Source: Elusimicrobiota bacterium (GTDB lineage: Bacteria; CG03; SLGR01; JBDRKX01). Taken from it: a DNA stretch of 64,000 nucleotides. Of the stretch, positions 3,865 through 63,778 are shown piece after piece. Numbering within the stretch: position 1 is the first letter of the stretch; each line of letters begins with the position of its first letter. The notes beneath the pieces are model-generated. The model searched no databases and was not told the origin of the DNA. It saw nothing but the letters and a program-made list of their open reading frames with translations. The position numbers and the translations under genes were made by a program. Location of the stretch: contig JBDRKX010000057.1 in the NCBI GenBank assembly GCA_043813605.1, positions 886-64,885 on the forward strand. Direction: 5' to 3'.

Positions 3865-3865
3865 A

Positions 3866-5251: not shown

Positions 5252-5359
5252 CGCTCTATGCCGGCATTATAATCAAACTTCCGCATGACTATTAAAATTA
5301 TCTATGAGGATTATCATATCAGGAAATTCCGCTGTATCAGATTTATGCCCGGCATAAAT

Positions 5360-6811: not shown

Positions 6812-6901
6812 TTCAAGCCTTTTGTTCTCCTGAGACTTTTAAATATCATGTTATTTTCGATTATAGCAACAATCCGCATCAAATTAAACCGGCTTCCCGT
6901 A

Positions 6902-8494: not shown

Positions 8495-8501
8495 AATACA
8501 G

Positions 8502-48236: not shown

Positions 48237-48534
48237 TATAAAAAAATAATCCCTTTATTAATTCGATCTCACATAATTTCAAAAAAACACCCGCGTTCTT
48301 GTTCTGAATTATAATTTTTATTTGAGTATATGGCAATTTTAACGGGTAGTCAATACTTCCCATGAAAGCAGGCTCAGCCGACACATTTGCTCTAAAGCGA
48401 TATCGCTCCGCAATTCCATTTTATCACGCCTCACCATTAGCTATCCCAATTTTCTCGATTATTTTAATTTGCTTAATAAAAAAAAAGATTATATTATATA
48501 TTCGGGCCTTATAAAAAGTTACCGATTTATAAAA
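48237..48534. promoter_or_regulatory. AT-rich divergent intergenic region (putative promoters for 46671-48236 and 48535-49977)
   Basis: About 300 bp of non-coding sequence between divergently oriented genes, AT-rich with A/T tracts. No promoter motif confidently assigned. Confidence 0.3.
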
Positions 48535-49977
48535 ATGACAGATATATCTATTATCAACATAACTATGGCGAAATATTTCGGCGGGCGGGTCGTTTATGAA
48601 CGGACCTCGGCCGGAGCTGTTTCTCTTATCGGGGCACTTGAACATGCAGGCTATAATGTTAACTTCCACGAACATTTCATAGACCACAGAAACACTTTAG
48701 CCGAAGAAGCTGAAAAACTTATTCCCTTTATCGATATTTCTTCCGGGATTATCGGAATGGGATGCCATTCTGTACATCTTCCTTTCGTGGTTATGGCATC
48801 AAAAGAACTGAAGGCACGCTTCCCCGATAAAAAAATAATCCTCGGCGGCATAGGCCCTTCCAGTGTCGCAGATAAACTGCTTGATAAATTCGATTTTATT
48901 GATGCCATTGTAGTCGGGGAAGCGGAAGAAACCATCATTGAAGTAATGCGCAGTATCGGGTCCACTCTCGCGGGCATTAAAGGTGTCGTCTACAGGGATG
49001 TTTCAGGAGTGCATATCAATGCGAATAGACCTCCCATCGAAGATCTTGATACTATCCCATTGCCGGCTTACCATATTGTAAATTTCGAAGAGTATGAAAT
49101 ACCTACTATAATAACTTCGCGGGGATGCCCTCACAGATGCCCTTTCTGCAGTCTTAGTCTTTTCTGGGGCAAAAGAACCAGGTACCGATCCACGGAAAGC
49201 AGCATCAGAGAACTGAAACTGCTTAAAGAAAAATACGGAGTGAAATATGTGTTTTTTGCGGATCCGACATTCAATGCAGACAAACAAAGAGTGATCGACC
49301 TTTGTGCCGCCATGAGAACTGAAAACCTTGATCTCAAATGGGAATGTCTTGTCAGATCAGACCTCATGGACGACGATATTATGAGAGAAATGAGCCTAAG
49401 CGGTTGCGATGCTGTTTTTTTCGGCTTGGAAACAGGCAGTGAGCACGTATACAAAAAAATAAAACGGGGCGCTACTACAGTTGCGGATTCGATTGAAGTC
49501 ATTCGGAGATCATCGGAATTCTTTAAGACTACGGAGGTCGGACTTATGTGGGGTTTCCCCTTTGAAACACTTGATGATTTCAAAAAAACTCTCGCAGTCA
49601 GGAATAAACTGGAAACAGAACTATGCACACAGGTGCAGTTGAGGTGGCTCGAGCCTTATCCGTGTACGGATCTGTTCAAGGAATACAGTAACGAGCTCTT
49701 CCTGCCCAAAGATGTGAGCCTTGTATATAAAAAAGATGATGTTACACAGGAAGTGGCAAAAGGGAAAGAATTTTATGCTGGAGACAAGAACATCTCTAAT
49801 ATCAGTATCGTTTCGGATGTAACAAATGTTCGGCTTGTTATTGCCGCATCCCATACAGCTTCCTTCTGCCGCGATATCATAGAAGAGAATCCGTCTATTT
49901 TTCCCGACTATTACAGGTACAGAACCCCTGACCTGGATAAAAAACTTGAACTTGCCAGAAAATACAGCATATATTAG
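48535..49977 (+). CDS. B12-binding domain radical SAM protein (subfamily A, paralog 4)
   Basis: MTDISIINITMA, GMGCHSVHLPFVV, LGGIGPS, VGEAEE, ITSRGCPHRCPFCS, RWLEPYP. C-terminal DYYRYRTPDLDKKLELA. Start trimmed to MTDIS. Confidence 0.8.
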   Translation: MTDISIINITMAKYFGGRVVYERTSAGAVSLIGALEHAGYNVNFHEHFIDHRNTLAEEAEKLIPFIDISSGIIGMGCHSVHLPFVVMASKELKARFPDKKIILGGIGPSSVADKLLDKFDFIDAIVVGEAEETIIEVMRSIGSTLAGIKGVVYRDVSGVHINANRPPIEDLDTIPLPAYHIVNFEEYEIPTIITSRGCPHRCPFCSLSLFWGKRTRYRSTESSIRELKLLKEKYGVKYVFFADPTFNADKQRVIDLCAAMRTENLDLKWECLVRSDLMDDDIMREMSLSGCDAVFFGLETGSEHVYKKIKRGATTVADSIEVIRRSSEFFKTTEVGLMWGFPFETLDDFKKTLAVRNKLETELCTQVQLRWLEPYPCTDLFKEYSNELFLPKDVSLVYKKDDVTQEVAKGKEFYAGDKNISNISIVSDVTNVRLVIAASHTASFCRDIIEENPSIFPDYYRYRTPDLDKKLELARKYSIY

Positions 49978-50013
49978 ACTTCCGGAGTCCGCTAAAGAGC
50001 ACACTCAGACAAC

Positions 50014-50157
50014 ATGAAGATAACTGCGCCCTGTGACAATATTGATGAGGTAAAACTGTTCGTTGAGGCAGGAGCTGATTACAAAAATATCTGGAAAAAT
50101 ATTTATGCTGACACATACGGCTGGACTTGCGGTAAAAAAGAATGCTTTCATATTTAA
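50014..50157 (+). other. Small Cys-containing ORF (47 aa); possible gene remnant
   Basis: MKITAPCDNIDEVKLFVEAGADYKNIWKNIYADTYGWTCGKKECFHI. It lies below the 60-aa cutoff of the ORF track and just downstream of the subfamily-A rSAM. Its N-terminus resembles the start of a larger enzyme, so it may be a truncated fragment. Confidence 0.2.
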
Positions 50158-50249
50158 ATAATGGAAGACAGCACACATGAACATTAAGTCTAAAGAAAAA
50201 GCTGTCTACCGTATTATAGATAATAGTGTCATCGCAGAGGTCAATACAG

Positions 50250-51956
50250 ATGATTAAAAATAAAAACCTCCTGACGATTCTCCTGTTTATATTCTTTATT
50301 GTTTCCTATTTCACAATAAACATCCATCGCATTTCCGAGAACCGGGTACTAGTAGGGGATGATGTTCCCAACCACCTGGTATTTTCGATTGAAGTATATT
50401 ATAAAATCAATGATATTTTAAGTTCACAGGACAGTGGATTTGCCTCTAAATTAATCTCGTTAGTCCGGTTGATTTCTGAACCCGTTGATCAGGCAGCGCC
50501 CACATATTCAAACTTTGTCTACATCACCACATACCCTGTATACCGCATATTCGGCAAAAATCTTTTTTCCGCACGACTGAGCAATTTTCTCTATCTTTTG
50601 ATACTCATATTTGCCGTATACCATATAGGAAAAGAACTGATATCGGGTCCCGGAGGCCTGCTTTCGGTATTTATTACACTGATGTTCCCGTATATTTTCG
50701 AGCCCTTGCGTCAATATGGTTTAGACCTACCAATGACGGCTCTTTCTTCTCTAGGTATATTGTTTTTAATAAAATCCGACGGCCTCAGGGACATCCGGTA
50801 TTGTACGGCATTCGGCCTGTCAGCCGGGATAGGCATGCTCATTAAGCCGCAATGCGCCGTTATCATTGGTATTCCTCTTCTTGTTGTTGCAGTAAAAACA
50901 GTTTTTTTCAGACACTCAGAAAAAAAGAAATCATGGATCAATATCATAATAAATTCTTCTGTCATAATCCTGATCACTGCAATGCTGTTCCAATTATGGC
51001 CCGGTAAAAGCATGATTCCACTTCTCTTTGGAAGCTTCAATAACAGCAATTTCCCTTACAGTTTTTATTTCCTTAAAAGTATTTTTGGAGTTCTACTGGG
51101 CCCTGTGCCGGCGGTGATCCTGATTATCTCAGTGTTTTACTGGATAAAAACAAAAAATGAGCACAGATTCCTTGCTGCTGCATGGATCATCGCTCCTATC
51201 TTCGGTTTTTACATATTATTCCTGACCCATTTCTACAAAGAACGCTTTTTGATGCCGATACTGCCTATCGCAGCAATACTTATCTCATGGACAGTCTTAA
51301 ACATAAGGCTGACAAAAATACGCGCTGGTGCCCTGATAGTATCAGTTGTCTTTTTTTACACTCAGTTCCTGTTTCTTTCCTATTCCCGGCCGAAAATAGC
51401 AGACATGGATCATACTCTTTCATACCTTGAAAACATGAAACATCATCCGGTGGGGATATTCAATCATTCTCCTTTCGGATATATGAACTATAAAAACGAT
51501 CCATTCAATGCAAAAGGTTTGGTTTCAGTTATTACAGACAATAGTACAACTGATAAAGAAATATCAATCATAACCGTGATCTGTTCCGCATTTGCACCGA
51601 CAGCTTTCGAGCTCCGGTATTGGACGAAGATTGCCGGAAGACAATTCGACCTGCAGGACATAGCCGTTAATTTTGGAAATGCACACAAAAAAATAGATAC
51701 TGCTGATTTTATTGTTTTTGGAATTCCACCAAGCCTCAATTTCAAAGGATGGCCGGATGAAGAACACCTCACATATAATATGCACACCTCCAGCGATTAC
51801 TTTACTCTCAGAAGACTGCAAAAACATTTTTCTGAAGAATATACCCGTTTCACACAGAAATTCAGCAGTTATCAAATGCTCTTCGAACATATGGAAACGG
51901 TGGGAAGTCCAAGGATGTTCAAGTGGTACATATACAAAAGAATCCGCAGTTCCTGA
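50250..51956 (+). CDS. GT-C-fold membrane glycosyltransferase (ArnT/PMT-like, family 39/83-like)
   Basis: At least 11 predicted TM helices. First-loop acidic motif VGDDVPNH. Periplasmic C-terminal domain. Confidence 0.55.
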   Translation: MIKNKNLLTILLFIFFIVSYFTINIHRISENRVLVGDDVPNHLVFSIEVYYKINDILSSQDSGFASKLISLVRLISEPVDQAAPTYSNFVYITTYPVYRIFGKNLFSARLSNFLYLLILIFAVYHIGKELISGPGGLLSVFITLMFPYIFEPLRQYGLDLPMTALSSLGILFLIKSDGLRDIRYCTAFGLSAGIGMLIKPQCAVIIGIPLLVVAVKTVFFRHSEKKKSWINIIINSSVIILITAMLFQLWPGKSMIPLLFGSFNNSNFPYSFYFLKSIFGVLLGPVPAVILIISVFYWIKTKNEHRFLAAAWIIAPIFGFYILFLTHFYKERFLMPILPIAAILISWTVLNIRLTKIRAGALIVSVVFFYTQFLFLSYSRPKIADMDHTLSYLENMKHHPVGIFNHSPFGYMNYKNDPFNAKGLVSVITDNSTTDKEISIITVICSAFAPTAFELRYWTKIAGRQFDLQDIAVNFGNAHKKIDTADFIVFGIPPSLNFKGWPDEEHLTYNMHTSSDYFTLRRLQKHFSEEYTRFTQKFSSYQMLFEHMETVGSPRMFKWYIYKRIRSS

Positions 51957-52116
51957 TTTCCGCAACTCGCGATGCGCATCTTTTCTTCTAGCATATTGTC
52001 CCATAATCCGGGAAAATATATTATTTCTTAGATTTTTTTGTATAATAATAAACGACAAGAATTATAACAAGAAAAAAATAATTCCGGCAGACTGTCACCA
52101 GAAAGGAACAGGAACG

Positions 52117-52986
52117 CTGAAAAAACATTTAATCATTGGAGCAAACGGGCAATTAGGATGCGATCTGACCAGGGTTCTGAGCGATAAAGACACGTCAACT
52201 CTGACCCATGATGATATCGAAATAGGCGATTATCAAACGGTCAAAGAAGTCTTAGGATCCATTAAGCCTGAAATAATAATAAACACAGCTGCTTATCATA
52301 ACGTTGAAGAATGTGAGAAAAACGAACTTGAAGCATTCAGGATCAATTCGATAGGCGCTAAAAACCTTGCTGTTGCTGCAGAAAGTATCGGCGCTACACT
52401 CATACATATAAGCACTGACTATGTTTTTGACGGCAAAAAAAACAGTCCCTACATAGAACATGACACCCCGAATCCGCTGAATACATACGGCCTGTCTAAA
52501 TTAGCAGGGGAATGCTACATCAGGAATAATACCGGTAAATATTTTATAATAAGGACAACAGGCCTATACGGGATGCATCAGTGCCGGGCAAAAAGCGGGA
52601 ATTTCATTGATACAATGCTCAGGCTGGCCCGGGAAAAAAAAGAGATAAAAGTCGTAAACGACCAGATATTGTCACCCACCTACACTCTTGACCTCGCACA
52701 TAAGATAGCGGAACTGGCGGATACTGATAAGTACGGCCTGTATCATATTGTAAATTCGGGTTTTTGTTCATGGTATGATTTTGCAAAAAAAATATTCGAA
52801 TATTCTGATATTAAAGCTGACCTGCAGCCCGTGAGATCCGATGAATTCCCATCATCGGTAAAAAGACCTTCATATTCTGTTCTGGACAGCATTAATTTTG
52901 AGCTTGCCGGAATAGGAAAACCGCGGAAATGGACTGAAGCGCTGATGGCATATATCGAAAAAAGGAGACAAAAAAATGATCAATGA
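52117..52986 (+). CDS. rmlD: dTDP-4-dehydrorhamnose reductase-like (RmlD-family SDR); start codon uncertain (possible CTG)
   Basis: HLIIGANGQLGCDL...INTAAYHNVEECEKNELEAFRINSIGAKNLAVAAESIGATLIHISTDYVFDG...YGLSKLAGE is the RmlD signature including the YxxxK catalytic motif. There is no in-frame ATG/GTG/TTG between the upstream stop and the Rossmann motif. CTG at 52117 is preceded by AAAGGAACAGGAAC. Confidence 0.7.
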   Translation: MKKHLIIGANGQLGCDLTRVLSDKDTSTLTHDDIEIGDYQTVKEVLGSIKPEIIINTAAYHNVEECEKNELEAFRINSIGAKNLAVAAESIGATLIHISTDYVFDGKKNSPYIEHDTPNPLNTYGLSKLAGECYIRNNTGKYFIIRTTGLYGMHQCRAKSGNFIDTMLRLAREKKEIKVVNDQILSPTYTLDLAHKIAELADTDKYGLYHIVNSGFCSWYDFAKKIFEYSDIKADLQPVRSDEFPSSVKRPSYSVLDSINFELAGIGKPRKWTEALMAYIEKRRQKNDQ

Positions 52987-53425
52987 CGTAAAACTGGTAC
53001 CCCTTGAGATATACATGGACGACAGGGGTTATCTGATTGAGATAATAAGGTCTGTGGACCCGCATTTCAACAAGTTCGGACAAGTGTATCTTGTAGGAGA
53101 TATGACGCGGGGCACAGTAAGGGCATTCCACAAGCACGATGTCCTGTGGGATTTCTTTTTTATATCACACGGATCAGCGAAATTCGGCCTTTATGACGAC
53201 AGGCCGGACAGCTCTACATATAAAGAAAGGGCCGTACTTGTTTCAGGAGAAAGAAAACCTTCTGTCCTTGTTGTCCCCCCCGGTGTATTTCACGGATGGA
53301 TGGCGCTGGAAGACGATACGCAGATGATCAGCATAGCAAGCGAAGTTTATAACAGGTCGAACCCTGACGAAGTCAGAGTGCCTCCGGATTCTTTCGGCTT
53401 TCAGTGGGAAATAGAAGGCCGATGA
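52976..53425 (+). CDS. RmlC-like cupin (dTDP-sugar 3,5-epimerase / keto-isomerase family)
   Basis: LEIYMDDRGYLIEI...FHKHDVLWDFFFISHGSAKFGLYD has cupin His residues typical of RmlC/FdtA-like sugar isomerases. 11-nt overlap with the upstream gene. Confidence 0.6.
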   Translation: MINDVKLVPLEIYMDDRGYLIEIIRSVDPHFNKFGQVYLVGDMTRGTVRAFHKHDVLWDFFFISHGSAKFGLYDDRPDSSTYKERAVLVSGERKPSVLVVPPGVFHGWMALEDDTQMISIASEVYNRSNPDEVRVPPDSFGFQWEIEGR

Positions 53426-54411
53426 TCTTAGTAACAGGAGGGGCAGGATACATAGGCAGTGTCCTTGTAAGAAGACTGCTTGACCGCGGATACCGGGTTA
53501 AAGTATACGATACTTTCTTTTTCGGGGAGGAACCTCTCGAAGAAGTCAGGGAGAATATCCTGATTGAAAGAGGAGATATCAGGGATTTCAATGAAAAAGT
53601 ACTCGAAAATATCGATGCTGTTATCCACCTGGCAGCACTTTCTAATGATCCTACTGCCGAATATAATCCTGGAACAAACATGGAGATCAATGCCGAAGGA
53701 ACCAGGTCACTGGCGCGCCTATGCAAAAAATGCGGGATAAAAAAGTTTATTTACGCTTCTTCCTGTTCTGTCTACTATACCGAGGAAGTCTGTGATGACC
53801 TGAAAGACGAAAATTCCCCCGTCTCTCCGGCTGCGCCCTATTCCCTCTCTAAGTTAAAAGGTGAAGAGGCTCTTCTGGAATTAGCAGACGCTGACTTTGC
53901 TCCCGTCTTATTAAGGCAGGGTACCGTCTACGGAATGAGTCCGAGAATGAGATACGACCTTGTGGTAAATACTATGGTAAAGGACATATTCACCACAGGA
54001 ACGATAAAAGTATTTGCCCGGGGTGAAATGTGGAGGCCGATTATAAGCGTTAATAATATAGTTGATTTTTACATATACTGCCTGGAGACCGATACGGATA
54101 TCGGCGGCGAGATTATCAACCTGGTCCATAAGAACTATCGGATAATCGATCTTGCCGGACAGGTAAAGGAAGTCCTGAAAGATATCAAAGACATCCGGAT
54201 CGATGTGCAGGAATTCATACCAAGCAAATTTAGAAGCTACAGAGTCTCAAACAAGAAAAGCAGGGATTTACTCGGATTTACCGCCGAAGAAACCCCTGAG
54301 GATACTGCAATGGAGATATATAAATCCTTAGAAAAAAACGGATTATCGGAAGTAAATAATCCTGTATACTATAATATTCAGTGGATGGAAGAAAAAGGGT
54401 ACCTTAAATAA
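53422..54411 (+). CDS. NAD-dependent sugar epimerase/dehydratase (extended SDR)
   Basis: MILVTGGAGYIGSVLVRRLL Rossmann motif. YSLSKLKGE YxxxK. The ATG overlaps the upstream TGA (ATGA). Confidence 0.8.
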   Translation: MILVTGGAGYIGSVLVRRLLDRGYRVKVYDTFFFGEEPLEEVRENILIERGDIRDFNEKVLENIDAVIHLAALSNDPTAEYNPGTNMEINAEGTRSLARLCKKCGIKKFIYASSCSVYYTEEVCDDLKDENSPVSPAAPYSLSKLKGEEALLELADADFAPVLLRQGTVYGMSPRMRYDLVVNTMVKDIFTTGTIKVFARGEMWRPIISVNNIVDFYIYCLETDTDIGGEIINLVHKNYRIIDLAGQVKEVLKDIKDIRIDVQEFIPSKFRSYRVSNKKSRDLLGFTAEETPEDTAMEIYKSLEKNGLSEVNNPVYYNIQWMEEKGYLK

Positions 54412-54440: not shown

Positions 54441-55565
54441 TCAGTTAAATCTCTTTAATATCCTCTCTTTATTGGGAAAAAAAGCTTTTTCCAGCATAAC
54501 ACCATTTGTGCAAGAAAGCCAGCAGTGGCATTTTTTACTATTAAAATATTCACGTATTTTCTCTGCTTTATCCCCGGACCACACAGCGTCAAAACCCGAT
54601 ACCCTTACATTGCCGGCAAGCATCTCTTTATGTACCGGGCAGAAATAAAGATTGCCTTCAGGATCCATCATGGCGAATCTTTCGCCGCAGGGACAGTCAG
54701 GAAAAAACCGGGCCGGATCTTTTAAGTATTTTAACAGATAGTGAAAATCCAGGAGATAGAACAGCAGGCTCAGGTCATTGAACAGCTGCGCAGGGCTGAA
54801 AACAGCCCAATCCATGCGGTTGTATATATCTTCTATGATGCAGTCTATCGAATGTTCAACAGCAGTTATATTCTCCGGAGTCCACTCAAACCTCTGCGTA
54901 TCCTTTTTCTGCACCATCAACTGGAACGATACTCTGAATCCCATTTTTCCCGCCCACTCATATACAGGGAATATCTGATCTGAGTTTTCCGGGATCAGCG
55001 TGAAATTAAAGCAAGGGAACATGCCGGGATACTTCTTTCTTAACAACAGCGCCGATTCCACAAGGGCGTCAAATGCCCCATTCACACCCCTTATCCTGTC
55101 ATGCACACCTTTTATCCCGTCTAAAGACGTTCCCAGCGATATATTGTCCAACCCGGAAGTCTTTTCTATTTCTTTTATTCCGGATAGAACTTTATCTGTA
55201 TTGAGAAGGTTGGAGAGTATCAATATACCGGGTCGCGGATATCTTTTGCGAAAAAAGGACACTATGGCAGGAAATTCGCTGTGAAGCCATGGCTCACCGC
55301 CCGAGAGTATTATGTACCTGATATCATCCAGCATTTCCGAGTTTTCAACGATCTTTTTGATTTTAGCCAAACTCAGATCCTTGTTTTTCTGTCTCTTCTT
55401 CCTGTACTTGAGATCGCACATTATACAGTCGGAATCGCACCTGTATGTAAGTTCAAAATGAAGTTCCGAAGGCGGATTAGCGCCAACGGAGACCCCGATA
55501 ACATTTTCTTCCATATAATTCCCGAGTTCCTTGAGAAATTTCTTTACTTCAACTGCAATGCTCAT
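54441..55565 (-). CDS. Radical SAM protein with C-terminal twitch/SPASM-like Cys cluster
   Basis: LTYRCDSDCIMCDL CxxxCxxC; ILSGGEPWLHSEF; C-terminal FCPVHKE...CHCWLSCTNG. Confidence 0.7.
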   Translation of the reverse strand: MSIAVEVKKFLKELGNYMEENVIGVSVGANPPSELHFELTYRCDSDCIMCDLKYRKKRQKNKDLSLAKIKKIVENSEMLDDIRYIILSGGEPWLHSEFPAIVSFFRKRYPRPGILILSNLLNTDKVLSGIKEIEKTSGLDNISLGTSLDGIKGVHDRIRGVNGAFDALVESALLLRKKYPGMFPCFNFTLIPENSDQIFPVYEWAGKMGFRVSFQLMVQKKDTQRFEWTPENITAVEHSIDCIIEDIYNRMDWAVFSPAQLFNDLSLLFYLLDFHYLLKYLKDPARFFPDCPCGERFAMMDPEGNLYFCPVHKEMLAGNVRVSGFDAVWSGDKAEKIREYFNSKKCHCWLSCTNGVMLEKAFFPNKERILKRFN

Positions 55566-57238
55566 AATATGCTTTTTAACTCTTCTAGTTTCTCTTTTAT
55601 CGTATCTATTATCTCCGGGGCTTCGAAATCACCCTTTTCAAAATCCAGGGCAGCCTCGTAGTTCTCTATCGCTCTCCTGAAATCTCCTTGTTTTTCAAAG
55701 TTCTCTGCAAGTTTGCTGTATGTGTCCCTGTTCCTTGCTTCTTCATTCAGGGATCTCTCGTAACATCCCGCGGCCCGGGCATGGTCTCCCTCATAGGAAT
55801 AATAATCACCCAGCAGCGCCCATTTATCCGGTTTCTTCAAAAGGACTCCCGAAGTCTCCGGGACACCTATACCGAGTGCGTATTGACAAAATCTTTCGTA
55901 CCTGTCGAACCTCAGTGCATAATCATTTTTATCCGCTTTCCAGTATAGATGATGGTCCCCCGAACTTATCCCGAACTCTGACGGGTTATTACGTAAATAA
56001 GTCCCTTTTTCCAGTGTACAGAATGACTGGCTTGCCAGAACATTATTTATATAAGGGCGTACTTTTTTTAAAAAATCAAGTGTTTCAAAAAAATCCTCTT
56101 CGGTTTCCCCGGGAAATCCGAATACTATGTTTATCTGAGCATTGATCCCGGCTTCATACGTATTTTTCAGCACTTCCACCGCTTCTTCCGGCCGATGTCT
56201 TTTATTCATCTTCTCAAGAACCCGCCCGGAACCCGACTCCACTCCGAAATAAAGCCATTCACATCCCGCAGCATTCATCTTTTTCAGAAGTTCCGGCGTC
56301 ATATCTTTTCTTATCATGGCCTGACCGGCCCATCTGATACTCAATGAATTCTCCAATACAAGTTCGCAGAATTCATCAAGTACTTTCAAACTGCCGTTCA
56401 AAAGCAGTCCGTTAAAATAGAAATAGTCGGTTTCAGGCATTTTATCAATATGATAAGTTATCTGCTCAAAAAGTCTTCTGCCGCTCATTGTCCGGTATTT
56501 CTGCCAGAAAAGGCGTTCATAACAGAAATGACAGTCATTGATACAGCCTCTGCTGTCAAGGATATCTATTCTGCCGGGCTGACTGTACGGCATGGTCCGC
56601 ATGTCTTCTGTAAAATCATCATATTCAGGGAACAGAAGCGCATCCAGGTCACTGACAACCTGCGGATCGCCGCAATCAATGATATCCTTTCCCTCTTTAA
56701 CCAGAAAACCCGGGCATCGCGGTAAGCCCCCTTTATCATTCCCGCCCTCAAGTTTCTCTATCAATTCCGGTAACGCTATATCAGCTTCACCTGTACAAAC
56801 ATAGTCCACATGATCCTGCGCGATAAAATCAAAGGCCATCTGTGCACGGGAAGCTTTGTGCCCCATAAACACGGTTACTATGTCACTATCGGTTTCTTTT
56901 ATCTTCCGCGCCAGTTCAAGACTTATCAGTGTATTCGGCGTATGCGTGGTAAAACATACCATCCCGGGATGCTGACTCGTTATTTTTTTAACATTCTCCT
57001 TAAAAACACTATCTGTAAATAATTGTTCTACAAATGAAGGATTCTCCCATAGGGAATAATAATCTCTGTTATCCCAGTATTTTCTGTATTCTGAACTGCA
57101 CTCATAATACAGAGAATTGTTCATATCGAAAACAGACACTTCATGGCCTTTGTTCCTGAGCAATGTCGAAAAAAAAGCAAGTATATATGGGGGGCAATAG
57201 CGGACCCACCAGGGACATTTAACAAGCGCTATCCTCAT
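55562..57238 (-). CDS. B12-binding domain radical SAM protein fused to C-terminal TPR repeats
   Basis: MGHKASR, TGEAD, LDSRGCINDCHFCY CxxxCxxC. The last about 110 aa show TPR-like helical repeats (YYSYEGDHARAAGCYERSL...YSKLAENFEKQGDFRRAIENYEAAL). Confidence 0.75.
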   Translation of the reverse strand: MRIALVKCPWWVRYCPPYILAFFSTLLRNKGHEVSVFDMNNSLYYECSSEYRKYWDNRDYYSLWENPSFVEQLFTDSVFKENVKKITSQHPGMVCFTTHTPNTLISLELARKIKETDSDIVTVFMGHKASRAQMAFDFIAQDHVDYVCTGEADIALPELIEKLEGGNDKGGLPRCPGFLVKEGKDIIDCGDPQVVSDLDALLFPEYDDFTEDMRTMPYSQPGRIDILDSRGCINDCHFCYERLFWQKYRTMSGRRLFEQITYHIDKMPETDYFYFNGLLLNGSLKVLDEFCELVLENSLSIRWAGQAMIRKDMTPELLKKMNAAGCEWLYFGVESGSGRVLEKMNKRHRPEEAVEVLKNTYEAGINAQINIVFGFPGETEEDFFETLDFLKKVRPYINNVLASQSFCTLEKGTYLRNNPSEFGISSGDHHLYWKADKNDYALRFDRYERFCQYALGIGVPETSGVLLKKPDKWALLGDYYSYEGDHARAAGCYERSLNEEARNRDTYSKLAENFEKQGDFRRAIENYEAALDFEKGDFEAPEIIDTIKEKLEELKSIL

Positions 57239-57270: not shown

Positions 57271-58833
57271 TCAGCTGCTGAGAGCTTCCCTTATCTTATT
57301 CAGCATTCCGTAAAGGCTGTAGGGTTTCTTCATCACTGTATAGTTCTTCTTTCGCGCCTCGTTCAAGCGTGCGCTGTCGAAATACCCGGTACAAAGAAGT
57401 ATCTTAAGCTTTGGTTTATGTTCTTTCAATCTATCAATTAATTCAAGGCCGGTGCCGTCCGGCAGAACAATATCACTGAATACCAGGTCCACTGAGCCGG
57501 CTTTCTTAAAGGCGGCATATGCCTCTTTCATAGACCTGGCTTCTATTACCGAATAATTATTCTTTTTAAGTATCTTCTTCACCGCGTCTCTCAATGTATC
57601 CTCATCTTCTATAAGCAGGATGGTCTCTCCCCGGCCTTTTATCCCGTCTGCAGGGATGACTTTTTTTGAACTCTTTTTTTTCTCTACAGAACCTGCAGGA
57701 AAATAGACACTGAATTTAGCGCCTTCTCCCGGAACGGACGATACAGTTAACCACCCGCCATGCTGCTCTATTATAGCTTTGGTAACCGCAAGGCCCAATC
57801 CGGTACCTTTACCCGGTTCTTTAGTCGTAAAAAAAGCGTCAAATATTGCCGGTATTATTTCTTTGCTTATCCCCGTCCCGGTATCCTCTATTGTCAATAC
57901 TGCGAACTCTCCTTCCTTTGAACCGGGAATATCATCGATCATTTCAGGAGTGATCCTTATGTTCTCTGTCTTTATCTTTACTCTGCCGCCATCCGGCATC
58001 GCGTCCCTCGCATTCAGCATCATGTTCATCACTATCTGTTCGACATTGCCCTCATCCGCAGTAACAGTTCCAAGATCCTCATTTAGTTCACATTCGATAA
58101 CTATATCTTCACCGATAAGCCGCCGCAATACATTCAAAATACTGGATAGGGTCTCATTCAGGTTGACCGGTTTCATTTCAACGGCCTGCCTGCGGCTGAA
58201 CACCAGGAGCTCCTTGATAAGGTTTTCCGCAAGTATGGTACAGTACTGAATGCTTTTCATATCCGCATATATATCATCGGACTCATCCAAACTAAGCAGG
58301 ACAGAATCTCCCATCACCTTGATCGAGCTCAATATGTTATTAAAATCATGCGCGATACCTTCAGCCAGTCTCCCGACTGTTTCTATCTTCTGTGATTGTA
58401 TCAATTGATCCATAACCTTACGCTTTTCGACTTCCACTTTTTTCCGTTCGATAGCATACCGGACAGAACGGAACAGCATCTTACTGCTGATATATCCCTT
58501 AACAATATAATCCTGCGCACCTTCACGAAGCGCATTTATCGTCAATTCATCGTCTTCAGTAACTGTTAATATAATAATCGGGAGATCGGGTACGCACTCT
58601 TTTACTTTTCTGAATGTTTCAAGCCCGCTGCTGTCCGGAAGAGACAGATCCAGCAAGACCAGATCAAATCCGCCTTTCTGAAGGATACTTAAACCATCTC
58701 CCAGCTTTTCGCAGCATTCTATTTCAAAAGGATTATTCACAACTTCACCAAGCATGTCCTGAACGAGCATCTGGTGAGCAAGGCTATCTTCTATTATAAT
58801 GATTTTCTGCTTTTCCTTATTCATATATATCAA
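57271..58833 (-). CDS. Hybrid sensor histidine kinase (REC - HisKA - HATPase_c - REC), cytoplasmic
   Basis: N-terminal receiver (IIIIEDSLAHQ...LLDLSLPDSSG). H-box IAHDFNNILSSI. G-box GTGLGLAVTKAI. C-terminal receiver (ILLIEDEDTLRDAV...FSDIVLPDGTG). No TM segment. Confidence 0.8.
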   Translation of the reverse strand: MIYMNKEKQKIIIIEDSLAHQMLVQDMLGEVVNNPFEIECCEKLGDGLSILQKGGFDLVLLDLSLPDSSGLETFRKVKECVPDLPIIILTVTEDDELTINALREGAQDYIVKGYISSKMLFRSVRYAIERKKVEVEKRKVMDQLIQSQKIETVGRLAEGIAHDFNNILSSIKVMGDSVLLSLDESDDIYADMKSIQYCTILAENLIKELLVFSRRQAVEMKPVNLNETLSSILNVLRRLIGEDIVIECELNEDLGTVTADEGNVEQIVMNMMLNARDAMPDGGRVKIKTENIRITPEMIDDIPGSKEGEFAVLTIEDTGTGISKEIIPAIFDAFFTTKEPGKGTGLGLAVTKAIIEQHGGWLTVSSVPGEGAKFSVYFPAGSVEKKKSSKKVIPADGIKGRGETILLIEDEDTLRDAVKKILKKNNYSVIEARSMKEAYAAFKKAGSVDLVFSDIVLPDGTGLELIDRLKEHKPKLKILLCTGYFDSARLNEARKKNYTVMKKPYSLYGMLNKIREALSS

Positions 58834-58881: not shown

Positions 58882-60231
58882 TTACAAACTCCTGTTTTCC
58901 CTGCCTTTCCACCGCCATAGAGGGGTAATTGAGCACTGCTTCCATATTTCCAGCTTTTCCATACATAAATATAACAGAATACCTGCATCATGTTTTCGTA
59001 TATGTTTTGCTATTTTTCTGTATATATCCGCCCTGACAGCGTCGGTATATCTTAATTTGCCGTCAAATCCTATTATAAGCTCCTCATCCAGTATATTATT
59101 ATCAGGAAACCTGTTTTCTATGATCTTTTTAAGTTCACGGCGAAATCGCAGTGAACCCAGGCTTATCCACCTTATTCTTTCCTTGTCAATATTATCAAAA
59201 AGATCTCCTATCAACTGCCTGTAATCCTCTTCCCACCCGTCATAGTAGACAACAGGATCGAAATGAAAGGCGACATCAAATCCATGCTGTACACAGCGGG
59301 AAGCGGCCTTAAGGCGGTTTTCCAGAGTTGCAGAATAGAATTCATTATTATCTATAACCGGCTGCGGGTTGAGTGACCATGCCACAACAACGTTATCTGC
59401 TGCCGGAACATCCAGTATATTTTCGATATTATCCGATTTTGTCTTGAATTCGAACACTGTTTCAGGGTGTCTTCTGAAGAACTCTATTATGTGTTTCGAA
59501 TACCCCGTAACGGGATCAAGAGCGAGAGAATCCGTAAACTCTCCGGAACCGATACGCCTTCCCATGCCGGCGTATGCGCCGAGCTTTTCCAGGTATTCCG
59601 CCATGTTCGACTGGATCACTATCCCGGGAGTATTGGTATATTCCTGGAGATAGCAGTATGTACATTCATAAGGACAGCCGAAACCCATATTAAATATGTG
59701 ATAGCCGCAGGAGACACACCCCTGAGTACAGGGACAGGTACGGAAAAAATCGAATTCTTCTTCAATTATAAAAAATGTTTTTCTCCTTTTATTATATGTC
59801 TCCAGCGAATATATATTTTCTTTTATGTATTCCTTGTAACTGCTGATCTCAATATATTCCGATTCTTCATACTTCTGCCGCACATCTTCCAGCAAAATGG
59901 AGTCTGCCGACATGCTGTCATAATAGACTGTTTCAGGATATAATTCAATTTCACTTATATCCGCTTTATTTTCGGGACGTATTGATATATCAGGAAGATA
60001 CGGTTTATATTTTTCGCCGGACAATGAAGTGCGCCGGAACCTCAGAACCAGCAGTCTTTTCTTTATTTCATTGAAAGACATATCCTGAAGTTCAGATGCC
60101 AGGTCCCGCAATGCAATATTGTCTTTTTTTGCGATCTCGTAAAAAAGGCGGGTGATTTCTCTTTTTTTATTTACTCCCAGCCGTACGAAATTCTTTTCAA
60201 CAAAGTCCCTTATTTCTTCAGCCGAGTTCAT
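58882..60231 (-). CDS. Spore-photoproduct-lyase-family (COG1533-like) radical SAM protein with a 170-aa N-terminal extension and an extra Cys cluster
   Basis: GFGCPYECTYCYLQ is the SPL-type CxxxCxxC with the YCYL signature. It is immediately preceded by CPCTQGCVSCGY. A C-terminal SPL-like alpha/beta region. Confidence 0.65.
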   Translation of the reverse strand: MNSAEEIRDFVEKNFVRLGVNKKREITRLFYEIAKKDNIALRDLASELQDMSFNEIKKRLLVLRFRRTSLSGEKYKPYLPDISIRPENKADISEIELYPETVYYDSMSADSILLEDVRQKYEESEYIEISSYKEYIKENIYSLETYNKRRKTFFIIEEEFDFFRTCPCTQGCVSCGYHIFNMGFGCPYECTYCYLQEYTNTPGIVIQSNMAEYLEKLGAYAGMGRRIGSGEFTDSLALDPVTGYSKHIIEFFRRHPETVFEFKTKSDNIENILDVPAADNVVVAWSLNPQPVIDNNEFYSATLENRLKAASRCVQHGFDVAFHFDPVVYYDGWEEDYRQLIGDLFDNIDKERIRWISLGSLRFRRELKKIIENRFPDNNILDEELIIGFDGKLRYTDAVRADIYRKIAKHIRKHDAGILLYLCMEKLEIWKQCSITPLWRWKGRENRSL

Positions 60232-60922
60232 TTACGATAAATCTTACAAGCTTATCAGCCATACTTCTTTTTGCGCCTTTTATCTTTGCTCTCGATTTTA
60301 AGTCAAATTTGTCATAGAAATGAAGTTTTCCTATTACTTCAGCCGCATAAAAAAGCGCCATTGCCTTTATTCCCGAACGGGATGCGGCGGAAAATACAGA
60401 AGATATTTCCATATCCAGACAGTCTATGCCGGCAGAAAGAAGCATATCGGTCTTCTCCTCTTCAAGCACGAGTGACGACACGGTGGCACATGTATATTTC
60501 ATATAACCGGAAGTGTCTACCGAATTTTCGAATTTCTCTACTAATTTACGATCAGGATAATAATAATCATTTTCCGGAAAACCATCCTGTTTTAGAAAAT
60601 CCGCGAAACTTTCCAGGTTCATACTCCTGCTCGGCAATATTTTATCTCCCACGTCTCCTTTTAATGCGCCGCAACTGCCGAATAAAATAAGGTTCTCGCA
60701 ATCTGTCTCTTTCAGCATTATCAGGCAATCGCCTGAAAAACACATATGTTTCAGGTATATAACCGTACATATATCGGAATGCGATATATCAAACAACATC
60801 CCTTTTGCGCCCGGTTTTGCATTAAGGGATTTAAACAAGCCCCTGTCATCCATGGGCAGCATCAGGCAGTTTTTTCTTATATCTTCCCTGTTTGCACCGA
60901 ATATTTTTTTAAAATCCACCAT
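60218..60922 (-). CDS. Purine nucleoside phosphorylase/MTA-SAH nucleosidase family (PNP_UDP_1) protein
   Basis: LILFGSCGALKGDVGDKI phosphate-loop-like motif. C-terminal DMEISSVFSAASRSGIKAMALFYAAEV resembles the MTAN xMExxA substrate motif. 14-nt overlap with the SPL-like rSAM gene. Confidence 0.55.
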   Translation of the reverse strand: MVDFKKIFGANREDIRKNCLMLPMDDRGLFKSLNAKPGAKGMLFDISHSDICTVIYLKHMCFSGDCLIMLKETDCENLILFGSCGALKGDVGDKILPSRSMNLESFADFLKQDGFPENDYYYPDRKLVEKFENSVDTSGYMKYTCATVSSLVLEEEKTDMLLSAGIDCLDMEISSVFSAASRSGIKAMALFYAAEVIGKLHFYDKFDLKSRAKIKGAKRSMADKLVRFIVNELG

Positions 60923-60939
60923 TACGGAATATAGGCCGT

Positions 60940-62751
60940 TTATTTGAAGAGTTTTTTCAGCTTATCGGCTTCTTTTTCGAGCTTTTTCTCCGCCTCTTTT
61001 TTCAGGCTTTCTTCTGCTTCTTTCTTTTTTTGTTCGGCAAGTGCTTCCGCTTCTTTCTTCTTTTTATCAGCCAGGTCTTCCGCTTCTTTTTTTCTGGACG
61101 CTATTTCATCCTCAAGTTCTTTTTTCTTCTGTTCTACGGTTTGCTTCTGAGTATTCAAATACGCCAGTTTCTGCTCTCTTTCTGAACTGATGTCAGATTC
61201 AAGTTTCTTCTTTCTGCCGGTGACTTCTTTATCAAGAAGACCGTTTACCCTGTTTTTTGCTTCTTTCAGTTTTCTGTCGAGTTCCTTTTTTAGCTGGCCG
61301 GAAATAATGCTGTCCAGATTCGAATTCACCGTGAATTCAGGTGCCTCCCGCGAACCGGATACTCCCACCGTAAGCTCTACCAGAGGATCCTCCAGCCTGA
61401 GGTATTCCAGCCAATTATCAGGCAATATACCCCGGCCTTTCCATTTTATACTGGAATCTATGCTGTCTCCCCTGATATCAGCTTTTACATTCAGGATTCC
61501 CGTTGAGCCGGCCAGTTCAAATCCGTCATAATCCAAAGAAACCGATTCTCCCGGCTCATCATGTGCCCTGTCTATGGAGACATCAAGCTTCATGTTCCCG
61601 TATACTGCGGTTATTAGTACCGGTTTTGCCGTTATCCACGGTGTTGTTGTTATGTCCCTGGCGCTGACCCTGTCATTCCCCGTTCCTGCAAGGAGCATCT
61701 CCCTGATATGAAACGGCGGATAGGAATATGCTTTCGGAAATATTACATCCGTTCCTTTCCCACGCTGTTTTTGGGGCTTTTTTTCTTTTTTAGGCGGCAT
61801 GTATTTCCTTATCTTTTCTATCCAGCCGATTGCGGTCCTGCATTTTTCTGTTATCAGCGTTCCAAAAAGTGTATCTGCTATATCTCCGACTTCTATTGAC
61901 GGCAGTTTCAGTTTTTCCATAATAGCCGCATAATCCTGCCGGCGGGCGGATTCTATCTCATCTACACTTCCCTTTATCTGGGCAAAAGAAGCATTTACCT
62001 GCGTAACTTTTGCCCCGGCTTTTTCCCGCAGTTTATCCGCCTCATTGATTGCCCCGGAGGCTTCTTCTATGCGTTTCCGGGCCATATCGATATCCTGGAT
62101 ATTGTTTATTTTAATACCTTTCAGACCGGCTATTTTATCCTGGATCAGCTTAACAGTTTCCCCGGCATCCAGGTCGCTTAAATCACTGTAATCCTTCTTT
62201 AGCCGGGAAAGTGAATCTTCAAGTTTTTTTACAGCTTTGAGGGATTCAAGGTCATCTTTATTAAATGCACTCTCCACATCGATCTTTTCAGTAGCGCGTT
62301 TTTTAACATCTTCGATCCAGGAGGACATCTTCTTTTTCCATTTCTTTTCACGTTCTTCCGGTTCAATTTTTTCTTCCTGCCCCCTTTTTGATTTCTTTGT
62401 GACAAAACCGGAAGAATCTCTCTTTGTATTGAATATTAGCCCTTTTCCTGAAGCCTCTTCAATAACAAGTTTTTTTTCAAGCAGCGCGTTGCCCACAAGG
62501 ACGAGTTTTATTTCTGACACATCCATCAGGTTTTTGTATTCATCTTTTCTGCTTGCCGCCTTGAATCCAGTGATCATTACTGCCGGACCCGACCAATCTA
62601 AATCCACTGCTTCCAATTCGACTTTAGCGCCCCATGCAGCTGTCCCCGCTTTCTCAACTGCCTTTTCAATGATATCGTCAAGAAAGAAAAGACCCGTCAG
62701 TATTACAACCGACAGCAGTATTATAAAAGTAATAAAACCCTTCCACCTCAT
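60940..62751 (-). CDS. AsmA-like membrane-anchored protein with a Lys/Glu-rich coiled-coil C-terminal tail
   Basis: N-terminal TM anchor FITFIILLSVVILTGLFF, then AKVELEAVDLDWSGPAVMITGFKA (AsmA-like N-terminal region). A central coiled coil. A C-terminal low-complexity KKKEAEALAEQKKKEAEESLKKEAEKKLEKEADKLKK. Confidence 0.5.
   Translation of the reverse strand: MRWKGFITFIILLSVVILTGLFFLDDIIEKAVEKAGTAAWGAKVELEAVDLDWSGPAVMITGFKAASRKDEYKNLMDVSEIKLVLVGNALLEKKLVIEEASGKGLIFNTKRDSSGFVTKKSKRGQEEKIEPEEREKKWKKKMSSWIEDVKKRATEKIDVESAFNKDDLESLKAVKKLEDSLSRLKKDYSDLSDLDAGETVKLIQDKIAGLKGIKINNIQDIDMARKRIEEASGAINEADKLREKAGAKVTQVNASFAQIKGSVDEIESARRQDYAAIMEKLKLPSIEVGDIADTLFGTLITEKCRTAIGWIEKIRKYMPPKKEKKPQKQRGKGTDVIFPKAYSYPPFHIREMLLAGTGNDRVSARDITTTPWITAKPVLITAVYGNMKLDVSIDRAHDEPGESVSLDYDGFELAGSTGILNVKADIRGDSIDSSIKWKGRGILPDNWLEYLRLEDPLVELTVGVSGSREAPEFTVNSNLDSIISGQLKKELDRKLKEAKNRVNGLLDKEVTGRKKKLESDISSEREQKLAYLNTQKQTVEQKKKELEDEIASRKKEAEDLADKKKKEAEALAEQKKKEAEESLKKEAEKKLEKEADKLKKLFK
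60944..61150. repeat. Imperfect short tandem repeats encoding the K/E-rich tail (low complexity)
   Basis: Reiterated GCTTCTTTCTTTTT / TTCCGCTTCTTT units on the plus strand. Confidence 0.5.
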
Positions 62752-63260
62752 GATTTAAACCTTGTGTATATACTGTATAGTTTTGAGGCTTTTAGTATTT
62801 TAATTATTTTCAGCTTTTCGACCTTCTGATGTAAGCTGTTCCTGTATATAAGAACAAATCTGACCGAAAACAGGTATAAAGGAACTGCCGCGGCCACAGA
62901 GATAACCAGGGAACCGAGGACAATAGTATTATTGAACCTTGTTAAAGGGATAACAGGTATATTGTACGCAGTTGTCCAGAAAGCATTGAGCCCTTCCGAC
63001 AAGAGCAGTCTGCTGCCTATGGCATGGGCGGCGGGATCGAGCGCCAATCCTGCAATTGAAAACAATAATGAAGAAAAAACCGCTGCAGAAACGTTTACTT
63101 TCAGGATTATTATCAGCAGGATCACAAAAATATTATGAAGCGCAAAGACCGGTGTCAGCCCTATTACGGAACCCAGTACTACACCCAGTGCGATCTCGGA
63201 AGGCGATGCATTCGCATTCAGGGCCTTAAACAGTTTTTTTATCAGTTTTATCCAGATCAT
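62748..63260 (-). CDS. DUF2062-like small membrane protein
   Basis: PSEIALGVVLGSVIGLTPVFALHNIFVILLIIILKVNVSAA matches the DUF2062 signature. 4 TM helices. 4-nt overlap with the upstream gene. Confidence 0.55.
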   Translation of the reverse strand: MIWIKLIKKLFKALNANASPSEIALGVVLGSVIGLTPVFALHNIFVILLIIILKVNVSAAVFSSLLFSIAGLALDPAAHAIGSRLLLSEGLNAFWTTAYNIPVIPLTRFNNTIVLGSLVISVAAAVPLYLFSVRFVLIYRNSLHQKVEKLKIIKILKASKLYSIYTRFKS

Positions 63261-63285
63261 TGTTCTGAAGTTTTATTCTATTATT

Positions 63286-63675
63286 TTACTTTTTTAAAGT
63301 CAATTGCTCTACGACTTCCGCCGGAAGCCTGCAGGGCCTGAGCTTTTCATTGATCGAAACGAGACGCGTTGCTCCCCTGACTATCTGTCTGCCGGATTCT
63401 TTTTCTCTTATATCGTACCCGAAATCCATTTTTACCCCGGAAATATTTTCCAGTTCGGTCTCAATAGTAAGGATATCTCCATATCTACCCGGTGATATAT
63501 AATCGATTTGGGCATGTTTTACGATAAACTGTACCCCGGCCTCCTTGAGGCTCTTTACGCAAATCCCCCTTGATTCCAGCCATTCTGTCCTGGCCATTTC
63601 AAAATAATCAAGATAATTAGCGTAATAAACGACCCCCCCGCAGTCTGTATCCCTGTAATAGATCTTTATTTCCAT
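63286..63675 (-). CDS. Hotdog-fold acyl-CoA thioesterase (YbgC/4HBT family)
   Basis: MEIKIYYRDTDCGGVVYYANYLDYFEMARTEWL is the classical 4HBT N-terminus with the catalytic Asp. Start trimmed to MEIKIY. Confidence 0.75.
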   Translation of the reverse strand: MEIKIYYRDTDCGGVVYYANYLDYFEMARTEWLESRGICVKSLKEAGVQFIVKHAQIDYISPGRYGDILTIETELENISGVKMDFGYDIREKESGRQIVRGATRLVSINEKLRPCRLPAEVVEQLTLKK

Positions 63676-63778
63676 ATATTCTCCGAATTTCCTTTCCAAT
63701 CATGTATATTTTTAGCAGTTTGTCAGGTATATTGTCAATAAATTGAAAATTTAGATTGTTTTTTGTAATATATGCACT

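Follow-up and report, generated by a model that had tools for sequence, protein, structure and literature searches.

Among the known pairs of a radical S-adenosylmethionine (SAM) enzyme and a protein of the purine nucleoside phosphorylase (PNP) family, MqnE carries out an adenosyl addition, the PNP_UDP_1-family protein MqnB acts next, and a second radical SAM (rSAM) enzyme, MqnC, follows the nucleosidase. The first two of these steps are the same as those of HpnH and HpnG. In the formation of the bacteriohopanepolyol side chain, HpnH attaches the 5'-deoxyadenosyl radical to an alkene and HpnG, a PNP homologue, removes adenine, after which the ribose is opened and reduced to a tetrol, HpnI glycosylates the product and the rSAM enzyme HpnJ tailors it (PMC13459092). 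In this study, we analyzed a gene pair of an Elusimicrobiota bacterium (assembly GCA_043813605.1), located in a stretch of 64,000 nucleotides (nt) of contig JBDRKX010000057.1 (positions 886 to 64,885 of the forward strand; hereafter the window, whose own numbering is used below), in which a gene for a nucleosidase-like protein overlaps a gene for an rSAM protein of the spore photoproduct lyase (SPL) family. We found that the two genes are a functional unit, a genuine cassette that is kept across several little-studied phyla and whose downstream gene is translationally coupled. Judged by analogy with described pathways, the pair most likely belongs to a sugar-building pathway and not to DNA repair.

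Organization and conservation of the gene pair

An earlier sequence-only reading of this DNA had placed two open reading frames (ORFs) at 58882-60231 and 60218-60922, and both were found at these limits, on the minus strand, together with the 14-nt overlap that it had described. The order of the genes had to be reversed: the rSAM stop does not overlap the nucleosidase start, as had been thought; the nucleosidase gene is the first of the two, and it is its stop that overlaps the start of the rSAM gene (Table 1). The coding-strand sequence at the nucleosidase/rSAM junction is ...cgtaaATGAACTCGGCTGAagaa..., and the rSAM start is backed by homologues that open with the same residues, MNSPDEIK. The rSAM protein of the window is identical to a database entry from an Elusimicrobiota metagenome-assembled genome (MAG).

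Relatives of the rSAM were numerous. Among the candidates examined, 4999 proteins matched at E<=1e-5, the best 120 being full-length with 45-57% identity, and full-length homologues occurred in at least 590 species-level genomes. The labels of the hosts included Omnitrophota, Elusimicrobiota (Endomicrobia and the cultured Elusimicrobium), Auribacterota, Chlamydiota, Planctomycetes, Spirochaetes and others. Among 83 loci fetched via the rSAM, 32 had the nucleosidase gene immediately ahead of the rSAM gene, the former ending beyond the start of the latter, and one more was broken at a contig end; the coupled loci carried the labels Omnitrophota, Elusimicrobiota/Endomicrobia, Chlamydiota, Auribacterota, Erginobacter, Poribacteria and Planctomycetes (about six phyla). 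When loci were fetched via the nucleosidase and at least 400 nt were available downstream, the rSAM gene followed immediately in 51 of 68, was divergent in one, and was not found within 6 kb in 16. Thus, the adjacency of the pair is far beyond chance, which the spread over phyla excludes.

In the 32 loci, the two genes overlapped by 8 to 41 nt, usually by 8-34 nt and most often by 34 nt. This value was found in 18 loci of several phyla (L003, L012, L013, L017-L020, L022-L024, L026, L030-L032, L034, L039, L046 and L049; loci are referred to by number), and the 14-nt overlap of the window was shared by L001 and L085. Such a fixed 34-nt overlap implies a conserved dual-coding stretch, in which the last codons of the nucleosidase gene and the first codons of the rSAM gene occupy the same DNA.

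The 16 nucleosidase loci without the rSAM formed a lower-scoring subclade (216-250 bits), to which L087 (Candidatus Brocadia), L139 and L142-L145 belong. On the Brocadia contig, a B12-binding rSAM, a small COG1533 rSAM and an aldo-keto reductase (AKR) were found near the nucleosidase gene; in L142 and L144, its neighbours were unrelated (topoisomerase, RmuC and GH18).

Sequence and structural features of the two proteins

The rSAM scored 98.5 bits against the Pfam SPL family PF20903 (cut-off 27), and thereby belongs to the SPL superfamily, but only 118 bits against the SplB equivalog TIGR04070 (cut-off 400) and 57.3 bits against TIGR03886 (cut-off 437.55). A scan of the curated NCBIfam models with this protein returned SPL-type models only and none for HpnH, MqnE or ArsS. 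Its AlphaFold (AF2) model was of high confidence (predicted local distance difference test score (pLDDT) 92.7; predicted template modelling score (pTM) 0.92). In a Foldseek search, the model matched SPL (4rh0/4fhc) with a template modelling (TM) score of 0.82 on the target and 21% identity over ~350 residues; SPL was the sole close solved relative, followed by generic rSAM folds at E ~1e-4. The SPL signature GCPYECTYCYLQ noted in the sequence-only reading was found at residues 185-196.

Residue conservation was assessed in an alignment of 129 full-length homologues from genome and metagenome loci, and a family profile aligned rSAM residues 98-385 to the Geobacillus SPL chains. First, the hydrogen-atom donor of SPL, Cys140 in G. 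thermodenitrificans and Cys141 in B. subtilis, corresponds to E231; its position is fixed in the alignment because the PDB entries are C140A and C140S mutants. Glu occupies this position in 126 of the 129 homologues and Gln in three. Second, the position of SPL Tyr98, the relay Tyr that comes after the third cluster Cys, is Y194 in the window protein; among the 129, it is occupied by Phe in 84 and by Tyr in 44. Third, Y192, at the Tyr96 position, is invariant, as are H323 and D325, two residues not common to SPL. With Glu in place of Cys140 and, in most homologues, Phe in place of Tyr98, the Cys-to-Tyr hydrogen-return chain of SPL is absent. Judged by these alignments, the rSAM is a member of the SPL superfamily that forms a distinct clade but is no spore photoproduct lyase; it keeps the motif for the SAM-cleaving cluster and the SPL barrel and, on the same evidence, cannot use the SPL mechanism. 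The sequence-only reading had allowed for a grouping with true SplB enzymes and a coupling that is not conserved. This did not hold: identity as a bona fide SPL or DNA-repair enzyme is ruled out by the score, by the changes at Cys140 and Tyr98 and by the genomic context, and the coupling crosses phyla. The family is also basic, with a whole-protein net charge of about +11 and 13 invariant Arg/Lys residues, which suggests an anionic substrate or partner.

The sequence-only reading had also described a second Cys cluster, CPCTQGCVSCGY, before the rSAM motif. The motif is present, at residues 166-177, but only three of its four Cys are kept, C172 being unconserved. An additional invariant Cys, C423, lies in the last beta-strand of the AF2 model. 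LipA-type auxiliary clusters are held by three Cys just upstream of the rSAM motif and one C-terminal ligand, and the conservation pattern here suggests that C166, C168, C175 and C423 may bind a second Fe-S cluster or a metal. As had been claimed, the long N-terminal domain is without a match to known families: residues 1-98 matched neither SPL nor any Pfam family, nor was there a credible PDB match. The domain proved to be conserved throughout the rSAM family, with N21, R28, E32, K57 and R64 invariant, a median isoelectric point of 9.7 and a net charge of +7. The sole PDB sequence match, Plasmodium eS4 (E 3.6e-4), was rejected as spurious, as it pairs a beta-rich region with predicted helices.

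The nucleosidase-like protein, which the sequence-only reading had assigned to PNP_UDP_1, indeed matched PF01048 with 52.5 bits (cut-off 25.1). It belongs to a discrete, modest-sized family of proteins of ~230-240 amino acids (aa), with 179 cluster representatives at E<=1e-30 in an exhaustive profile search. Its AF2 model (pLDDT 93.9) was most similar to the hexameric methylthioadenosine phosphorylase (MTAP)/DeoD PNPs (TM ~0.74, E 7e-15 for 1jdv, 14-17% identity), and a structure of the methylthioadenosine/S-adenosylhomocysteine nucleosidase (MTAN) ranked only 44th among the fold matches. The scores against the curated subfamily models were low (DeoD, 16-22 bits for cut-offs of 230-338; HpnG TIGR03468, 18.5 bits for 187.1), and the NCBIfam models gave no MTAN match at E<=0.01 and no MqnB match. 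Assignment to HpnG, MqnB or DeoD was therefore rejected, the curated scores being far under the cut-offs, and membership in MTAN is improbable on the same grounds.

To locate the catalytic residues, the nucleosidase was aligned by hidden Markov model (HMM) with PDB sequences and by hhalign with E. coli MTAN and DeoD, from which the reference numbering and residue roles were taken. The alignments agreed on the core. The FGSCG of the nucleosidase aligned to the (T/V)GS(A/C)G loop. E172, the counterpart of MTAN E174 and PNP E181, was invariant in 100 diverse members, and D170 and M171 were conserved in at least 90%. Position 195, that of the catalytic Asp, was Asp in at least 90% of the same members and Glu in the window copy, and its spacing of 23 residues from E172 is identical to that in MTAN and DeoD. 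Thus, the loss of the catalytic Asp/Glu residues, which the sequence-only reading had named as a sign against its assignment, was not observed. On the other hand, L80 stands where PNP has its phosphate ligand Arg87, the residue here being hydrophobic family-wide, and the Arg24 region is unconserved. The Arg24/Glu12 position of the family is unconserved in an N-terminal alignment that is unreliable, and for this reason F8 was dropped as a counterpart of DeoD His4. D65 and L70 are invariants specific to the family. Taken together, the alignments indicate that the protein keeps the ribose-binding Glu and the catalytic acid and is without the PNP phosphate residue Arg87. Because the Arg87 position is hydrophobic and Arg24 is unconserved, hydrolysis is likelier than phosphorolysis, and the protein is presumably a hydrolase that releases adenine.

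Table 1. Coordinates of the gene pair, of residues and domains in its products, and of related genes
Feature	Sequence	Position	Strand	Support or remark
PNP/MTAN-superfamily nucleosidase-like gene, 234 aa, upstream member of pair	Window	60218..60922	-	PF01048 match
SPL-family rSAM gene, 449 aa, downstream member of pair	Window	58882..60231	-	PF20903 match
14-nt overlap ATGAACTCGGCTGA: rSAM ATG (60231-60229) within nucleosidase ORF, whose TGA is 60220-60218	Window	60218..60231	-	Read from sequence
rSAM: family-specific N-terminal helical domain, residues 1-98	Window	59938..60231	-	Five helices, pLDDT >90
rSAM: extra Cys motif C166-P-C168-x6-C175-G-Y	Window	59707..59736	-	C166, C168 and C175 in 129/129 homologues; C172 in 9/129
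rSAM: CX3CX2C motif (C186, C190, C193) within GCPYECTYCYLQ	Window	59653..59676	-	129/129; aligns to SPL C90, C94 and C97
rSAM: E231, at position of SPL hydrogen-atom donor Cys140, motif GxGEFxDS	Window	59539..59541	-	HMM alignment to 4rh0 (C140A) and 4fhg (C140S)
rSAM: C423 (YLCME), invariant distal Cys, candidate fourth ligand of extra Cys site	Window	58963..58965	-	125/125 ungapped sequences
Nucleosidase: D170-M171-E172 (MTAN E172-M173-E174, PNP E179-M180-E181)	Window	60407..60415	-	HMM and hhalign alignments
Nucleosidase: E195, catalytic Asp position (MTAN D197, PNP D204)	Window	60338..60340	-	Alignment
B12-binding rSAM with TPR tail, possible accessory member	Window	55562..57238	-	31% identity, E 1e-48 to L024 1808-3118
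PNP of four-gene operon	L121/L158	5977-6714		
SPL of four-gene operon	L121/L158	6684-8015		
GT2 of four-gene operon	L121/L158	8015-8866		
AKR of four-gene operon	L121/L158	8848-9798		

Partner genes, possible function and window surroundings

To identify recurrent partners of the pair, neighbouring ORFs were clustered and annotated, and HMM searches were run over all 162 loci. In 29 loci, mostly of Elusimicrobiaceae and some of Omnitrophota, the gene immediately ahead of the rSAM encoded an AKR (YdjG/Tas-like), and L085 had the order AKR-PNP-SPL (PNP and SPL standing for the nucleosidase and rSAM genes). A glycosyltransferase of family 2 (GT2) was an immediate neighbour in 13 loci, the order being PNP-SPL-GT2 in L089, L131 and L136. 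In L121 and L158, four ORFs overlapped in series as PNP-SPL-GT2-AKR (Table 1); upstream of this operon lay two divergent GT4 glycosyltransferase genes. A protein combining DUF362 with 2x[4Fe-4S] was encoded upstream of the nucleosidase in 20 loci, mainly of Omnitrophota. About ten loci contained a B12-binding rSAM and a COG1533 rSAM of 280 aa that resembles PA0069/Rv2578c, and 14 contained a small nitroreductase-like protein. In L088, a single operon (3044-8976) comprised genes for a PP-loop ATPase (PF01171), the B12-rSAM, the small rSAM and the DUF362-Fer4 protein, followed by the nucleosidase and SPL-family genes. A long Omnitrophota operon ending in the pair was also seen in L021, L022, L024, L025 and L086, with genes for a polyferredoxin and a second DUF362 protein divergent from it. 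DUF362 and the N-terminal domain of LarA belong to one Pfam clan (PMC11770544). Among the neighbours in the examined loci, genes for a transporter, tRNA-guanine transglycosylase, mqnA or mqnD did not recur, and no squalene-hopene cyclase or hpn genes were seen in the loci.

The partner set matches the series of hopanoid enzymes, and MqnE/MqnB share its first steps; therefore, adenosyl transfer was ranked first among the possible functions. A logic like that of HpnH/HpnG, with adenosyl addition, adenine hydrolysis, reduction and glycosylation, is a tentative proposal that we hold with less than even confidence. According to it, the rSAM would add the 5'-deoxyadenosyl radical from SAM onto an unsaturated acceptor, and the nucleosidase would strip adenine off the adduct. 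The co-operonic AKR, where present, would turn the exposed ribose aldehyde into a polyol, and the GT2 enzyme would glycosylate the product; in Omnitrophota, the B12-rSAM, the small COG1533 rSAM and the DUF362 ferredoxin could supply tailoring steps and electrons. The acceptor is probably anionic, as the 13 invariant Arg/Lys residues of the rSAM suggest. The sequence-only reading had also raised adenosylation followed by adenine removal. The AKR and GT2 partners and the PNP-SPL-GT2-AKR operon give it circumstantial support. In its most specific form the proposal is more doubtful: the SPL scaffold would have been re-used as a new class of 5'-deoxyadenosyl-transferring rSAM that, with the nucleosidase, AKR and GT2, grafts the ribose of SAM as a C5 polyol or glycosyl unit onto an anionic acceptor (a phospho-lipid carrier, a nucleotide or a nucleic-acid base), as a hopanoid-independent counterpart of HpnH/G/I in Omnitrophota, Elusimicrobiota and allied phyla.

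Several observations weigh against adenosyl transfer. Adenosyl addition and ordinary hydrogen abstraction are not told apart by this sequence analysis, and the rSAM is related to HpnH, MqnE and ArsS at the superfamily level only. The fold of the nucleosidase is nearer to hexameric DeoD/MTAP than to MTAN, and the water-activating Glu12 of MTAN has no counterpart that could be placed in the unreliable N-terminal alignment. About 25% of the nucleosidase loci have no rSAM within 6 kb, and the Elusimicrobiaceae carry AKR-SPL with no nucleosidase within 6 kb. Many of the loci come from related lineages, and the locus counts are not independent events. Finally, the basic surface and SPL ancestry of the rSAM could equally mean a nucleic-acid substrate, and the nucleosidase-first gene order is equally compatible with a nucleosidase that acts first. 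In the Elusimicrobiaceae of gut and rumen (L044, L048 and L052-L079), the genes seen ahead of the rSAM were those for AddB, AddA, a YbaB-like protein, a CoA-binding protein and the AKR.

If the nucleosidase acted first, its substrate would be a (modified) nucleoside, and the base or ribose derivative that it sets free would then be transformed by the rSAM. This is unlikely, although nearly all loci have the order nucleosidase-rSAM with translational coupling and MqnB followed by MqnC offers a precedent for the succession, as does the queuosine hydrolase QueK followed by the radical queuine lyase QueL (PMC11570991, PMC11130926). The SPL ancestor binds nucleotides, the family is basic, and the invariant E231, H323 and D325 could bind sugar hydroxyls. 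However, gene order is undiagnostic of reaction order, no transporter or tRNA-guanine transglycosylase genes recur nearby, and the GT2 partner has no obvious role in such a scheme. It is similarly improbable that the AKR would then reduce a sugar aldehyde or, as with AprD4/AprD3, a keto compound formed by radical dehydration.

A role of the nucleosidase in by-product removal has also been considered. Radical SAM enzymes are generally inhibited by 5'-deoxyadenosine (5'-dAdo), and MTAN-type enzymes relieve this inhibition. A dedicated hydrolase of 5'-dAdo (or of methylthioadenosine or S-adenosylhomocysteine), possibly in complex with the rSAM, would thus relieve its product inhibition, and the AKR would detoxify 5-deoxyribose by reducing it. 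The adenine-type catalytic residues are kept and no phosphate site is present, the tight overlap suggests stoichiometric co-production, and lineages without an adjacent nucleosidase could use a housekeeping MTAN. We nevertheless give this explanation a low probability: a general salvage enzyme is unlikely to remain in an operon with a single rSAM family in several phyla and to pass over other rSAMs, the frequent GT2 partner has no explanation here, and the pair is found without the array of rSAM genes of the window, which has 13 other rSAM ORFs and no second nucleosidase. The narrower suggestion of the sequence-only reading, salvage of 5'-dAdo made by the 14 local rSAMs, was rejected as a specific explanation, since many genomes have the pair but not the array (for example L001, L084, L085 and L121).

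Least probable is an rSAM that repairs or modifies DNA or RNA (another lesion or a base hypermodification) with only a secondary link to the nucleosidase: the SPL fold, the basic N-terminal domain, the 13 invariant Arg/Lys, AddA/AddB upstream in Elusimicrobiaceae, and neighbours such as TilS-like, Maf, TatD and ArfB-like genes (L002), a pseudouridine synthase (L084) and HhH-GPD (L089) speak for it, but the SPL repair relay is gone, the cross-phylum partners (nucleosidase, AKR, GT2 and DUF362) are small-molecule enzymes, the DNA/RNA genes are lineage-specific, and no PNP-fold enzyme is known to act on polymers.

With regard to the surroundings of the pair, the window contains 14 ORFs with CX3CX2C, the pair's own rSAM included, which agrees with the 14 rSAMs counted in the sequence-only reading; ten of them are mutually paralogous B12-binding rSAMs. 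The 13 others lie at 1-57238, the B12-binding proteins being ~470 aa each, and two are SPASM-type rSAMs (9902-11254 and 54441-55565). No second nucleosidase was found in the window beside these 13 ORFs, nor did the window contain an AKR or a close GT2 homologue. The B12-binding rSAM with a TPR tail (Table 1) was the best match in the window to the B12-rSAM found alongside the pair in Omnitrophota, which gives it, by similarity, a weak link to the pair, on which the main conclusion does not depend. Between the two lies the gene for a hybrid histidine kinase (57271-58833) that carries receiver domains at its N- and C-terminal ends. The SPASM rSAM at 54441-55565 was rejected as a counterpart of the Omnitrophota 280-aa COG1533 rSAM, to which it has no similarity. 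Directly upstream of the pair (60940-63699) are genes for a YbgC-like thioesterase, TIGR03546 (DUF2062) and TIGR03545 (DUF748/AsmA-like), and the same five-gene order is present in another Elusimicrobiota MAG (L001); this setting may be a lineage-specific envelope or lipid context.

Other features of the window include four paralogous ORFs of ~526-530 aa amid the array that are without a Pfam match (686-2266, 2272-3864, 6902-8494 and, cut, 1-611). The array also holds a 521-aa ankyrin-repeat protein (46671-48236) and a protein with three receiver domains and GGDEF (15657-17438). The only plus-strand island of the otherwise minus-strand window (48469-54411) encodes a B12-rSAM, a PMT_2/ArnT-like glycosyltransferase, two unannotated ORFs and an NAD-dependent sugar epimerase/dehydratase, and the GC skew changes sign at 52-54 kb.

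Significance and comparison with known systems

In public databases, the rSAM family is labelled 'spore photoproduct lyase' or 'DNA repair photolyase', and these labels are likely to be misleading. Neither the rSAM family nor the cassette was characterised in any paper that came up in literature searches on SPL with a nucleosidase, on the SPL family in Omnitrophota and on SPL in Elusimicrobia. The family is large, with thousands of metagenomic proteins besides the species-level genomes counted above, and is routinely given these labels in organisms that form no spores, where they are almost certainly wrong. The conserved overlap and the AKR, GT2 and ferredoxin partners delimit a small cassette open to direct testing. 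Should adenosyl transfer hold, SAM-ribose grafting would have a further, independent evolutionary origin, and a metabolite or modification not yet known would be expected in Omnitrophota and Elusimicrobiota, both poorly characterised. Should by-product removal hold instead, no earlier rSAM would have had a 5'-dAdo hydrolase of its own.

Compared with SplB (TIGR04070; PDB 4FHC, G. thermodenitrificans), the rSAM has the same fold and the same CxYCYLQ context of CX3CX2C, and the motifs TK, SxN, RF and R(F/Y)P are common to both. In contrast with SplB, the family has Glu for Cys140 and, in 65%, Phe for Tyr98, it adds the 98-residue N-terminal domain and the CPCx6C/C423 site, and it has metabolic operon partners in non-sporulating host phyla. 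LipA, which was among the weak fold matches, offers an analogy of architecture, having three Cys N-terminal of the rSAM motif and one C-terminal ligand. However, the spacing is CxCx6C here and CX4CX5C in LipA, the fourth candidate ligand is Cys here and Ser in LipA, and there is no specific homology.

The nucleosidase shares with MTAN (Pfs/MtnN), the DeoD PNP and the MTAP of S. solfataricus the PNP fold, the GSxG loop, the (D/E)-M-E motif and the catalytic Asp position, but differs in its 14-17% identity, in NCBIfam scores below 22 bits for cut-offs of 230-338 and in the hydrophobic residue at the Arg87 position. QueK/QueL likewise combine a nucleoside hydrolase and a radical enzyme that act in sequence on one substrate (PMC11570991), whereas QueK is of the IUNH type and not of the PNP fold, and no transporters of queuosine salvage or tgt lie near the pair; QueL is used here as a logical precedent only.

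As regards the systems that add an adenosyl group, the pair gave no match to any Mqn model, has no mqnA or mqnD neighbours and occurs in many hosts that are fermenters, which sets it apart from MqnE/MqnB/MqnC. HpnH/HpnG, with the GT2 enzyme HpnI and the B12-rSAM HpnJ, resemble it in the conserved combination of an rSAM with a PNP_UDP_1 protein and in the GT2, reductase and B12-rSAM partners. The differences are that HpnH is an rSAM of another subfamily, that the nucleosidase falls far below the HpnG model (18.5 vs 187 bits), and that the basic rSAM here suggests an anionic acceptor and not a triterpene. On the basis of the model scores and alignments, the two proteins fall outside SplB, DeoD, HpnG, MqnB, HpnH and MqnE, and probably outside MTAN as well. 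The cassette resembles the known pairs of an rSAM and a PNP-family protein in logic, with both of its parts forming distinct clades that have features of their own.

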